In this document: in pieces, positions 39,236-40,162 of the stretch
Layout: the number at the start of each line of letters is the position of its first letter
How positions within the stretch are numbered: position 1 is the first letter of the stretch
Sequence record: PQ478073.1
Length of the DNA stretch: 64,000 nucleotides
From: a phage
Strand: one strand, 5' to 3'
The notes under the pieces: model-generated
The model's database searches: none
Seen by the model: the letters and a program-made list of their open reading frames with translations, nothing else
Told to the model about the DNA's origin: nothing
Program-made: the position numbers and the translations under genes

Positions 39236-40162
39236 TTGAAACAAGCGAAAAAAGCACTGAAAACTAAGACTACTTATGGTGTTCTAGTTTGCACAGTACT
39301 TGTCGCTGCGATTGGATTTTATGGTTTTTCTCAAAATGATCGTGTATCATCATCGGACGAAAGTCAGGTACACAATTTAAAACCACAAGTTACGCAAATT
39401 CAAAAGCAGGAATTACCAAAGGTAGAAATATCAAAGGATGTTCCACGCGGCGAGAAGCATTATACGGTTCAACCTGGTGATAGTTATTATTCTATTGCTA
39501 AAAAGTTTAAACCTAAAAATGTACAACTTGAAGAGTATGTTATTTTGTTGAAAAATATCAATTTAAATGCTACTCTTCATACTTCTCAGGGTATCTTTAT
39601 CCCAACAAAAGAGGATTTGAAGAACGTATTGTTACCAGATGTGACTGTACTGTTTGATTATAATGATCCAGAAATTGTCAATCACATCAAAGAAGCTGAA
39701 GGTTCAATTGAATTTCAGTCCAAGAACAAACGCCGTTTACTTGGTGGGAAAGTCGGAGTTCCTTTCCACAATTCTAAATTTCATCCCTACAAGGACATGA
39801 AAGGTAATTATACAATAGGTTATGGGCATTATTTGGGTAGAAAAGAATCTGATGCGATTAAGTACAGAAACGGTATTACCAAAGCTCAAGCCAATAAACT
39901 TTTAATGCAAGATATGAAAAGAACATATAATGACTTTTTATTATTGATGCAGAAAAAAGAAGCAGTAAATCTGACCAAAGAACAACAACGTATTCTTTAT
40001 GAAATGTCCTATACAATGGGTGTTGATAAATTAGCAACGTTTAATAAACTTTGGAAAAGTGTGAAAAATGATAACCCTAAGAAATTTAAAAAAGAAATTA
40101 TGAATTCCTTATGGTATCGTCAAGTTACAAACCGAGCAGATTTGTTGTTAAGTTCACTCTAA
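39236..40162 (+). CDS. endolysin: N-terminal TM anchor, LysM domain, GH24 T4-type lysozyme
   Basis: YTIGYGH and WYRQVTNRA match T4 lysozyme; LysM HYTVQPGDSYYSIAKKF; TTG start 5 nt after AAGGAGG. Confidence 0.75.
   Translation: MKQAKKALKTKTTYGVLVCTVLVAAIGFYGFSQNDRVSSSDESQVHNLKPQVTQIQKQELPKVEISKDVPRGEKHYTVQPGDSYYSIAKKFKPKNVQLEEYVILLKNINLNATLHTSQGIFIPTKEDLKNVLLPDVTVLFDYNDPEIVNHIKEAEGSIEFQSKNKRRLLGGKVGVPFHNSKFHPYKDMKGNYTIGYGHYLGRKESDAIKYRNGITKAQANKLLMQDMKRTYNDFLLLMQKKEAVNLTKEQQRILYEMSYTMGVDKLATFNKLWKSVKNDNPKKFKKEIMNSLWYRQVTNRADLLLSSL

Follow-up and report, generated by a model that had tools for sequence, protein, structure and literature searches.

Predicted membrane tethering, leader hairpins, and lysis gene context of the LysM-GH24 muramidase of Rak2-like jumbo phages

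Analysis of a 64,000-nt stretch of phage DNA (sequence record PQ478073.1; hereafter, the window) revealed a single lysozyme-like gene, located at positions 39236 to 40162 on the plus strand and encoding a membrane-anchored LysM-GH24 muramidase of 308 aa. On balance, we favor the reading that this protein is inserted by Sec with its N terminus in the cytoplasm and its C terminus outside, and that it serves as a tethered periplasmic muramidase, the exported endolysin of Rak2-like jumbo phages. The architecture of the gene family has been known since 2017, when Buttimer et al. described the family of CBB_187, GAP32 gp180, 121Q gp532, and RaK2 'e' as predicted endolysins made up of a TMD, a LysM module, and a lysozyme domain, possibly of the SAR type (PMC5259590); induction of the CBB_187 orthologue inhibits the growth of E. 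coli (PMC5259590). The original prediction for this DNA, a membrane-anchored LysM-GH24 endolysin, therefore redescribes a published one and adds little. New relative to the published family description are a domain preceding the anchor in distant members, with the tether argument that results from it, and a set of leader hairpins, with the throttle on translation that they imply.

The window comes from an Asteriusvirus jumbo coliphage and is 99.5% identical to SP27; the phage carrying the gene infects E. coli and has a genome of ~350 kb. The open frame containing the lysozyme gene runs from 39203 or 39236 to 40162 (+) and ends in TAA. The original prediction placed the start at a TTG codon, and this was borne out: a Shine-Dalgarno sequence, AAGGAGG (39225 to 39231), stands 4 nt upstream of TTG 39236, the same TTG is the annotated start in PHROG 15410, 121Q, phAPEC6, and fEgEco12, and TTG or GTG is kept at this position in 10 of 11 lineages. 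Orthologues include 121Q gp532 (99.7% protein identity), CBB_187, and phAPEC6 gp293c. No structural module includes the gene, whose neighbors are of the host-takeover type (an Acb1-like 2H phosphoesterase, HPF/RaiA, and a CCA-adding enzyme). ATAAATA, the late-promoter motif that this clade carries upstream of structural genes, is absent from the 168 nt upstream of the lysozyme gene, and the T4 late-promoter consensus TATAAATA occurs just twice in the window, which is below chance, with neither copy near the gene. The host-takeover neighborhood and the absence of ATAAATA hint at early or middle transcription. A sigma-70-like site, TTGTAA-16-TGcTATACT (39092 to 39119, +), is promoter-like on weak evidence; comparable sites lie upstream in RaK2 (TTGACA-17-TAAAAT) and EJP2 (TTGACA-17-TAGACT), and sigma-70-like sites in the region showed no enrichment over shuffles. 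Our literature search found no experimental work on the window protein itself and no time-course data for any Rak2-like phage, and an orthologue of the gene is absent from the PA5oct transcriptome paper.

The originally predicted architecture, an N-terminal anchor joined to a LysM module and a T4-lysozyme-like domain, proved correct, with Pfam, AlphaFold2, and Foldseek supporting the two domains. The GH24 catalytic domain (aa 143 to 308; 39662 to 40159, +) scores 45.1 bits with the Phage_lysozyme profile (PF00959; cutoff, 22.3 bits; E = 1.6e-11). E155 (39698 to 39700, +), D187 (39794 to 39796, +), and T193 (39812 to 39814, +), the counterparts of T4L E11, D20, and T26, fall within the motif EG...YKDxxGxxTIGYGH and are invariant in alignments of 24 homologues at 46 to 88% identity, as well as in distant members. 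The gap between the Glu and the Asp is 31 residues, compared with 8 in T4L, and the spacing is atypical in both paralogues of the gene too. In the AlphaFold2 model, pLDDT exceeds 85 for residues 73 to 308, and residues 145 to 306 adopt the T4-lysozyme fold with a pLDDT of ~90; T4 lysozyme was the top class in a Foldseek search of the PDB (target TM 0.65 to 0.68 over ~172 columns). The LysM peptidoglycan-binding module (aa 74 to 123; 39455 to 39604, +) is likewise supported by all three methods: PF01476 scores 22.4 bits (cutoff, 20.9; E = 1.2e-4) in an alignment that covers just 17 of the 43 positions of the profile, the model of residues 75 to 121 has a beta-alpha-alpha-beta order (strand 75 to 77, helix 84 to 91, helix 98 to 108, and strand 119 to 121), and LysM-only viral proteins also match the protein in Foldseek (rank 24, target TM 0.61). 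Sequence matches to the LysM module include bacterial amidase-LysM proteins. Between anchor and LysM lies a linker of ~41 aa (39332 to 39454, +), low in confidence or disordered, with conserved NDR and QIQKQ motifs.

The N terminus begins with a 12-aa tail, (M)KQAKKALKTKT (39236 to 39271, +), which has five Lys and no acidic residue and is predicted to be cytoplasmic. It is followed by the sole hydrophobic segment of the protein, TYGVLVCTVLVAAIGFYGFS (aa 13 to 32; 39272 to 39331, +), a predicted signal-anchor. An N-terminal hydrophobic segment is kept in all 51 distinct N-termini examined, and the protein is therefore not a canonical cytoplasmic endolysin. Across the family, the tail holds 2 to 6 basic residues (median 4) and the uncharged core of the segment spans 14 to 21 aa (median 19). 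In three distant cluster representatives, a homologous domain of 75 to 95 aa is found N-terminal to the hydrophobic segment, so that there the segment can be neither a cleaved signal peptide nor a releasable SAR domain. In most SAR endolysins, the tail has only one or two basic residues; adding more at the N terminus can trap the SAR domain in the membrane, and in Mu gp22, those at tail positions 6 and 7 make release dependent on the releasin gp25 (PMC9239132). The window lysozyme, with its five Lys in 12 aa, falls outside the usual range. Because of these tail lysines and the cytoplasmic domain that precedes the anchor in distant homologues, the sequence comparison favors an anchor that stays in the membrane over a SAR domain that releases itself.

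Two other readings of the N terminus have to be weighed against a stable tether. Buttimer et al. in 2017 and the original prediction both raised the idea of a classical SAR endolysin, in which the segment exits the bilayer spontaneously or after pinholin-like depolarization and frees a soluble active enzyme, any pinholin-like small membrane protein involved being encoded nearby. By crude, position-independent Hessa sums, the segment is marginal (+1.1; family median, -0.2), close to the values for the SAR domains of P1 Lyz (+0.5) and P21 R (+0.8) and far from the other transmembrane segments of the window (-2.8 to -3.5). Gly, Ala, Ser, and Thr make up 37% of it, a share that speaks for a SAR domain although it is below the 53 to 63% of the P1 and P21 domains; several homologues have a Glu within the segment, as expected of a releasable SAR, and small conserved membrane ORFs of 43 aa (at 38311) and 74 aa (at 36817) lie nearby. 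However, the tail is more basic than is usual, the 40-aa linker and LysM module separate the segment from the catalytic domain in a way that makes refolding or caging of the P21 or P1 type inapplicable, the segment lies behind a further domain in distant homologues, and none of the small ORFs could be assigned to a family of holins, pinholins, or releasins, the 74-aa protein moreover having an acidic C terminus. We thus regard self-release as unlikely. Less likely again is a secreted endolysin, whose N terminus would be removed by signal peptidase so that a soluble LysM-lysozyme waits in the periplasm, as with Lys44 of oenophage fOg44. The distant member P0132 does have a textbook short signal peptide (MKRILFFLLTLTLSHA, cut before N), the uncharged core is just 14 to 16 aa in a few members, and an AAA/VAA run occurs within the segment, but this Ala run sits in the middle of the stretch, outside any c-region, conserved small residues at -3 and -1 are absent after the hydrophobic stretch (the last core residues being S, T, Y, F, L, or I), the median core is 19 aa, the segment is internal in distant members, and TMHMM calls the CBB and GAP32 orthologues transmembrane.

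The leader of the gene is structured. A hairpin at 39190 to 39232 (+; -16.7 kcal/mol) holds the Shine-Dalgarno sequence in its 3' arm; it is more stable than expected (z = -3.5, with 1 of 200 shuffles equally stable), and an equivalent hairpin is found in 11 of 11 lineages with differing stem sequences. Among 84 genes of 121Q, this region ties for the most stable translation-initiation region, with a Shine-Dalgarno pairing probability of 0.90. In the window itself, that pairing probability was not significant against shuffled upstream sequence (71/200), chance pairing of this element being common in T-rich leaders, and folding of the whole leader was not significant against expectation (z = -1.8). 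Further upstream is a 10-bp hairpin, hp1 (TGTAGAAAGTCC-GAT-GAGGCTTTTGCA; 39151 to 39177, +), which is conserved across the clade and present once per genome, always ~100 nt upstream of the lysozyme gene; an Rfam search of the leader returned no match. We considered an attenuator-like switch in which hp1 competes with the Shine-Dalgarno hairpin, but constrained folding gave the same occlusion whether hp1 was forced or blocked. Taken as sequence features, the conserved leader hairpin, the occluded Shine-Dalgarno sequence, and the non-ATG start imply that translation would be throttled.

The LysM-GH24 enzyme is not the sole lysozyme of the phage: every Rak2-like genome has three paralogues of the GH24 type, namely, the membrane-anchored LysM enzyme and, far outside the window, a soluble T4L-type lysozyme of 162 aa (121Q g586) and a virion hub lysozyme whose lysozyme domain is 29% identical to the catalytic domain described here. 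Muralytic activity of the soluble enzyme has been demonstrated (LysUE1, PMC12805682). Its gene lies in a late operon between the hub and gp25 genes, and in 121Q, the late-promoter motifs TATAAATA and CAATAAATA are directly upstream. In the phAPEC6 virion proteome (ESI-MS/MS), the 95.9-kDa hub lysozyme, gp241, was detected and the LysM-GH24 orthologue, gp293c, was not; the 162-aa paralogue was likewise not detected in virions.

As previously predicted, a spanin pair is present; encoded at 30029 to 30708, it precedes the lysozyme gene by ~8 kb (8,528 nt) and has the makeup of a two-component spanin. The i-spanin (124 aa; 30029 to 30403, +) has an N-terminal hydrophobic segment and a helical periplasmic part and matches PHROG 1152, 'Rz-like spanin' (6.6e-29), and the o-spanin (102 aa; 30400 to 30708, +), which overlaps it by 4 nt, has the lipobox LIISG-C and two further Cys; its match to Pfam LysC was below the cutoff. 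That no classical holin adjoins either the lysozyme or the spanins also held true, but the two small membrane proteins put forward in its place did not fare well. The 43-aa ORF at 38311 to 38442 (+), with a C-terminal transmembrane segment, is conserved two to three genes upstream of the lysozyme in three genera, and it is unlikely to be a holin, being a tail-anchored peptide with neither a periplasmic nor a charged C-terminal tail; the candidate at 40974 to 41159 is weak, not being syntenic in RaK2 or in Erwinia phages. The 74-aa ORF at 36817 has two transmembrane segments and is also found in RaK2. None of the small membrane ORFs within the window matched a holin, pinholin, or releasin family, and Pfam, including the Mu-type releasin DUF2730, gave no match for the membrane ORFs of 43, 61, 74, 86, and 64 aa.

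The apparent lack of a holin largely dissolves as an effect of the window boundary, since all genomes of the clade encode, at another locus, a protein resembling T4 holin T. This protein of 220 to 239 aa (SP27 29495 to 30154; 121Q gene 40; fEgEco12 Gp406c), found in 72 phage records of the clade including SP27, lies far outside the window. By alignment, it has a short cytoplasmic N terminus, one transmembrane segment, and a periplasmic domain of ~190 aa. Its AlphaFold2 model (pLDDT 83) matched T4 holin T chains 6px4_T, 6pxe, and 6psk in Foldseek (E = 4e-6 to 2e-5, target TM 0.61 to 0.64, whole target covered), with GAF domains scoring equally well; sequence searches of Pfam (Phage_holin_T) and, by phmmer and hmmsearch with a single sequence or a profile, of the PDB gave no match, and a paper supplement lists an HHpred probability of 89.9%. 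The 121Q GenBank record labels the protein 'structural', but the phAPEC6 virion list does not include it. We regard it, by its fold and topology only, as a candidate T-type holin. The lysis genes of these genomes are dispersed, as in T4.

Combining these observations, we propose that the Lys-rich 12-aa cytoplasmic tail and the single hydrophobic segment would hold the LysM-GH24 protein, one of two nonvirion lysozymes of Rak2-like phages, in the inner membrane, while the ~40-aa linker and LysM module would present the catalytic domain (E155/D187/T193) to peptidoglycan. Slow synthesis from the TTG start and the Shine-Dalgarno-burying hairpin would let the toxic enzyme build up gradually, and the tethered enzyme would remain harmless as long as the membrane is energized. 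Lysis would be triggered when the off-window T4 T-type holin collapses the membrane potential, which would activate the tethered enzyme and release the soluble 162-aa paralogue, and the spanins would then disrupt the outer membrane.

The T-like holin, the soluble T4L-like lysozyme, and the spanins form a full T4-like triad without the LysM-GH24 protein, so that lysis may not require the gene. Its product could then be an accessory periplasmic peptidoglycan hydrolase, active, for example, in local wall remodeling during the long jumbo-phage cycle or as conditional help in lysis, with the 162-aa paralogue released by the T-type holin as the real endolysin. Besides the completeness of the triad, the late-promoter motifs and late operon of the 162-aa paralogue, which the LysM gene lacks amid its host-takeover neighbors, fit such a division of labor, as do the strongly damped translation implied for LysM-GH24 and the retention of all three paralogues by every clade genome, which means that their functions are not redundant. 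Set against this are the invariant catalytic triad, an architecture conserved in full across genera, and the toxicity of the orthologue in E. coli; another role has no direct support, and the position of the 162-aa paralogue between the hub and gp25 genes means that it could be baseplate related, though it was not detected in virions. We accordingly hold the accessory role to be possible but doubtful. A virion-associated lysin acting at infection, in contrast, is very improbable: some records do label the gene 'tail lysozyme' or 'baseplate hub subunit', and its catalytic domain is paralogous to that of the hub lysozyme, but the phAPEC6 orthologue went undetected in virions in which the hub lysozyme was seen, an N-terminal membrane anchor is unexpected in a tail protein, and the gene is outside the structural modules.

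A more speculative extension of the tethered-endolysin reading, which we advance only tentatively, is that Rak2-like phages have two parallel endolysin routes, one consisting of the T-like holin and soluble lysozyme and the other of a permanently tethered LysM-lysozyme gated by a clade-specific leader (hp1, the Shine-Dalgarno-burying hairpin, and the non-AUG start). The tethered enzyme would represent a class distinct from the SAR, signal-peptide, and C-terminal-anchor types, and its gate, which recalls that of T4 gene e, would be opened otherwise than by a late promoter, e.g., by an hp1-binding factor or RNA processing.

The practical interest lies in which of the two nonvirion lysozymes brings about host lysis in these 350-kb phages, several of which are in therapy development against E. 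coli, Klebsiella, and Erwinia, and in how an exported, wall-binding muramidase is restrained during a long infection cycle. The Lys-locked anchor, the relatives with a cytoplasmic domain, the T-holin-like protein, and the Shine-Dalgarno-burying leader sharpen a vague "possible SAR endolysin" into points that can be tested cheaply.

Compared with the CBB_187, GAP32 gp180, 121Q gp532, and RaK2 'e' family, this is the same gene with the same three-part architecture, and the protein shows no differences; beyond the description of Buttimer et al., the present analysis sets the gene beside its paralogues and a candidate holin, gives evidence against release of the SAR type, and describes the structures of the leader. 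Like the SAR endolysins P1 Lyz, P21 R, phiKMV gp45, and Mu gp22, it is predicted to have an uncleaved N-terminal segment of marginal hydrophobicity and would be exported by Sec before lysis, and it shares with P21 R a GH24 domain with a Glu-Asp-Thr triad. It differs from them in its five basic tail residues instead of the usual one or two, in the 40-aa linker and LysM module between anchor and enzyme, in an E-D spacing of 31 aa rather than 8, in having distant relatives whose anchor follows a cytoplasmic domain, and in the lack of an adjoining pinholin or releasin.

In T4, lysis involves the e lysozyme, the t holin, and the pseT.3/pseT.2 spanins, whose genes are scattered in the genome. Rak2-like phages resemble T4 in their PHROG 1152 'Rz-like spanin' pair, soluble 162-aa T4L-type lysozyme, holin-T-like protein, and unlinked genes, whereas T4 has no membrane-anchored LysM lysozyme. 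In early transcripts of T4 gene e, the ribosome-binding site is reportedly sequestered by a hairpin (McPheeters et al., 1986), which late promoters inside it bypass; that of LysM-GH24 is predicted to be buried similarly, but its hairpin has no late-promoter motif in or near it. Lys44 of fOg44 is a signal-peptide endolysin. Anchoring in the membrane as such is a property of C-terminal-anchor (CTA) endolysins, a type named in bioRxiv 10.64898/2026.09.09.750462, and like these and Lys44, the LysM-GH24 protein would need no holin to gain access to the wall compartment and would have to be restrained until the membrane is de-energized; unlike them, it has an apparently uncleaved N-terminal anchor, a Gram-negative host, and a LysM module. 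Among host enzymes, E. coli MltD is a membrane-bound lytic transglycosylase with LysM repeats, a housekeeping outer-membrane lipoprotein. Both are membrane-attached enzymes of the Gram-negative periplasm that cleave glycan strands and use LysM for wall binding, but MltD has a different lysozyme-superfamily fold and is attached to the outer membrane as a lipoprotein.

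The window (64 kb; G+C content, 34%) is 99.5% identical to Escherichia phage SP27 over the 4 kb tested and 96 to 99% identical to 121Q, phAPEC6, slurp01, G17, and other Asteriusvirus jumbo myoviruses of ~350 kb; counterparts of its LysM-GH24 gene are 121Q gene 532, phAPEC6 gp293c, and fEgEco12 g275. The gene family, its architecture, and the suggestion of a signal-anchor-release (SAR) N terminus are already known: Buttimer et al. (2017) described CBB_187 and named homologs in GAP32 (gp180), RAK2, and, explicitly, 121Q (gp532) (PMC5259590). A full-text literature search returned no further paper on this TMD-LysM-lysozyme architecture and no experimental characterization of it, and our additions to the published description are modest refinements. 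The reading frame (39236 to 40162, plus strand) could begin as early as a TTG at 39203; the evidence instead supports the TTG at 39236, as originally predicted: AAGGAGG lies 4 nt upstream, the PHROG 15410 alignment begins at the residue it encodes, and three independent annotations use it. At the equivalent position, Eneladusvirus and Mimasvirus phages have TTG, EJP2, Hallingskeid, and Munch have GTG, and RaK2 alone of the lineages compared has ATG. Pfam matches the 308-aa product to Phage_lysozyme (1.6e-11) and, only just over the cutoff, to LysM. The AlphaFold2 model, for which an alignment of 24 homologs was the input, is unstructured and of low confidence at residues 1 to 72 and confident from residue 73 on, with a predicted beta-alpha-alpha-beta LysM module at 75 to 121 and a T4-lysozyme fold at 145 to 306; Foldseek matches it to T4 lysozyme in the PDB (target TM, ~0.67) and also to LysM-only proteins in a viral fold library. 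E155, D187, and T193, housed in the GH24 motif EG...YKDxxGxxTIGYGH, are invariant in the homolog alignment, with an E-to-D spacing of 31 residues, whereas that of T4 lysozyme is 8. Residues 13 to 32 are the sole hydrophobic stretch. The predicted order of hydrophobic anchor, LysM, and T4-lysozyme-like domain is upheld.

The anchor had been proposed to be of the SAR type, a suggestion that survives only in part. Across 51 distinct N termini, a tail of 7 to 16 aa with 2 to 6 basic residues (median, 4) precedes an uncharged core of 14 to 21 aa (median, 19). Crude sums on the Hessa scale, taken over the best 19 residues, are +1.1 for the window protein (family median, −0.2) and −2.8 to −3.5 for other transmembrane segments of the window; the presumed SAR domain sequences of P1 Lyz and P21 R give +0.5 and +0.8. 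The segment is therefore marginal, a likeness to SAR domains, and some homologs carry a Glu within it. Against release stand the 5 basic and 0 acidic residues in the tail of the window protein: Chamblee et al. showed that Mu gp22 depends on the releasin gp25 for its release because of the basic residues at tail positions 6 and 7 (PMC9239132), an analogy that would count against free release here. Also against it, three distant family members (P0130, P0131, and P0134) have a mutually homologous domain of 75 to 95 aa ahead of the hydrophobic segment, which is thus internal and cannot there act as a signal peptide that is cleaved or as a SAR domain that is released; their contigs have the same synteny, with an HPF gene downstream and gp13 neck and sheath genes nearby. 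P0132, in place of the extra domain, has a textbook short signal peptide, and the transmembrane segment of P0135 is very hydrophobic. The full architecture is rare, with only 12 matches at E ≤ 1e-30 among 1.84 billion representatives in an exhaustive profile search. Judged from these sequences, the conserved trait appears to be periplasmic export, with tethering in most lineages. No small residues at −3/−1 after the hydrophobic stretch are conserved among the 51 N termini, which makes signal cleavage in the window protein unlikely. If the enzyme acts in lysis, a stable tether is probably a better description of its anchor than SAR-like release.

The LysM-GH24 enzyme is not the phage's only lysozyme, as tblastn finds three GH24 places in each Rak2-like genome. 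The remaining two in 121Q are gene 587, whose 887-aa product is a hub protein with a lysozyme domain at its C terminus (the phAPEC6 orthologue, gp241, is present in the virion proteome), and gene 586, which has the hub and gp25 genes on either side (315345 to 315833; 2346 to 2834, minus strand, of the 121Q locus L003). Gene 586 encodes a soluble 162-aa T4L-type enzyme, 36% identical to the LysM-GH24 catalytic domain and 52% to the hub domain; its product is missing from the virion lists of CBB (PMC5259590) and phAPEC6, and its purified UE-S1 orthologue, LysUE1, lysed E. coli with EDTA present (PMC12805682). The 36-nt spacer upstream of gene 586 contains CAATAAATA and a perfect TATAAATA, a late-type motif that in the window precedes the genes for tail fibre, sheath, and tube and is reported ahead of structural genes in the CBB paper. 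Gene 586 makes the stronger candidate for a canonical late endolysin. In the main rival reading, the endolysin function belongs to this soluble paralogue, expressed late, and the LysM-GH24 enzyme is an accessory; we consider this unlikely as the whole account. We lean slightly toward a full mechanism in which the LysM-muramidase is an exported endolysin beside the soluble paralogue. It would be inserted by Sec and remain stably tethered on the periplasmic side; slowly synthesized, it would be harmless while the membrane is energized; a T-type holin would collapse the membrane potential and unleash it; and the spanins would then complete lysis. We infer its topology, timing, activation, and necessity for lysis.

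The prediction of a spanin pair is correct: at 30029 to 30708, 8.5 kb upstream of the LysM-GH24 gene, an i-spanin matching PHROG 1152 ("Rz-like spanin"; 6.6e-29) overlaps by 4 nt an o-spanin with the lipobox LIISGC. It is flanked by an acyl-carrier-protein-like gene (29556 to 29975, plus strand; PHROG 5934/4154) and an HNH endonuclease gene (30710 to 31321, plus strand). The observation that no holin is evident nearby holds, the small membrane ORFs there matching no holin family, but a candidate is encoded elsewhere, by a holin-T-like gene far outside the window (SP27 29495 to 30154; 121Q gene 40; 2353 to 3015, minus strand, of the fEgEco12 locus L005). In the supplement to the fEgEco12 paper, its product Gp406c (220 aa) has an HHpred match to T4 holin T (6PX4_B; probability, 89.9). 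Members of this family, usually 239 aa long, align as an N-terminal stretch of ~20 residues, a single transmembrane segment, and ~190 aa of C-terminal domain, with no Pfam match and no PDB sequence match. Foldseek matches the family's AlphaFold2 model (pLDDT, 83) to three crystal forms of the T4 holin T periplasmic domain (E = 4e-6 to 2e-5; target TM, 0.61 to 0.64, whole target covered), matches interspersed with GAF domains, which have this fold class too. All 72 Rak2-like phage records have the gene, so that its clade is that of the LysM-GH24 gene; annotations are mostly hypothetical, membrane, or "structural" protein, and the phAPEC6 orthologue, gp172, is missing from the virion list. The modeled fold thus makes this a candidate holin encoded away from the LysM-GH24 gene. 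The T4 e, t, and spanin genes occupy separate loci, so lysis genes dispersed in this way are to be expected of a T4-superfamily phage. Immediately after the holin-T-like gene, in the downstream direction, fEgEco12 g405 and g404 (2037 to 2336 and 1676 to 2014 of L005, both minus strand) resemble a split paralogue of it, with an N-terminal transmembrane segment and the motif VVLYKFVPDEDT and then the rest in the next ORF; they could be a second holin, an antiholin-like copy, or a pseudogene.

Both small ORFs originally proposed as holins are weak candidates. That at 38311 to 38442 (plus strand; 43 aa) is a genuine conserved gene, unannotated in RaK2 and annotated in Erwinia pEa49 and phAPEC6; its homologs (3061 to 3195 of L006 and 2631 to 2771 of L007 in relatives) always lie 2 to 3 genes upstream of the LysM-GH24 gene, a position kept in three genera, and the 43- to 46-aa products have a basic N terminus, an NP..T motif, and a transmembrane segment reaching the C terminus. 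RaK2 and pEa49 both lack the ORF at 40974 to 41159 in the syntenic position. A 74-aa ORF at 36817 to 37041 (plus strand), a member of PHROG 22328, has two transmembrane segments and an acidic C terminus (DDDND) and is kept in RaK2 (42% identity, beside tk). None of the three products matches a holin or releasin family.

Directly upstream of the LysM-GH24 gene, 38657 to 39067 (plus strand) encodes a 136-aa 2H phosphoesterase (Pfam 2H-SAK, 1.6e-5), an orthologue of which has an HHpred match to the anti-CBASS nuclease Acb1 (7T26_A; probability, 97.6) in the fEgEco12 supplement. An HPF/RaiA ribosome-hibernation-factor homolog (40179 to 40511, plus strand; Pfam Ribosomal_S30AE, 3.3e-10) begins 16 nt downstream and is followed by a strong hairpin (40520 to 40546); the LysM-GH24 and HPF genes keep their synteny even in metagenomic relatives as distant as L009 and L010. 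Tandem paralogous genes at 41150 to 41566 and 41553 to 41975 (plus strand), perhaps with 40565 to 40960, share the C-terminal motif GTLP...(Q/M)(Y/F)xFIEDTFGIDxxxYQ, and a RaK2 gene at the equivalent place has a related one.

The spacer upstream of the LysM-GH24 gene is 168 nt long and contains a sigma-70-like site, TTGTAA-16-TGcTATACT, with equivalents in RaK2 (TTGACA-17-TAAAAT) and EJP2 (TTGACA-17-TAGACT); such sites are not more frequent than chance in the AT-rich DNA of the region. A 10-bp hairpin, hp1 (39151 to 39177; TGTAGAAAGTCC...GAGGCTTTTGCA), is almost invariant in sequence between genera with only ~50% protein identity and occurs once per genome, and each of its 11 matches in 2.9 million viral contigs lies ~100 nt upstream of a LysM-GH24 homolog. 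A second hairpin (39190 to 39232; −16.7 kcal/mol) holds the Shine-Dalgarno sequence in its 3′ arm and surpasses 199 of 200 dinucleotide shuffles in stability (z = −3.5). Each of the 11 lineages examined carries a counterpart (z = −2.1 to −6.8) with different stem sequences. Neither hairpin matched an Rfam family, and competition between them was unsupported by constrained folding. In the homologous segment of 121Q (84 genes; mean, −6.6 kcal/mol; SD, 3.9), the LysM-GH24 translation-initiation region is tied for most stable, with a Shine-Dalgarno pairing probability of 0.90, and only 6 of the 84 genes start with TTG. The metagenomic relative encoding P0134, with its extra N-terminal domain, is without hp1 and has two late-type ATAAATA motifs directly before the Shine-Dalgarno sequence and GTG start (6250 to 6330 of L011); regulation of the gene therefore differs between lineages. 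Read plainly, these leader sequences would keep a toxic exported enzyme at a low level of translation, and they may form a regulated gate. T4 gene e likewise has a hairpin that blocks translation on early transcripts, and late promoters inside that hairpin free it; the Shine-Dalgarno hairpin of the LysM-GH24 gene has no late motif within or near it.
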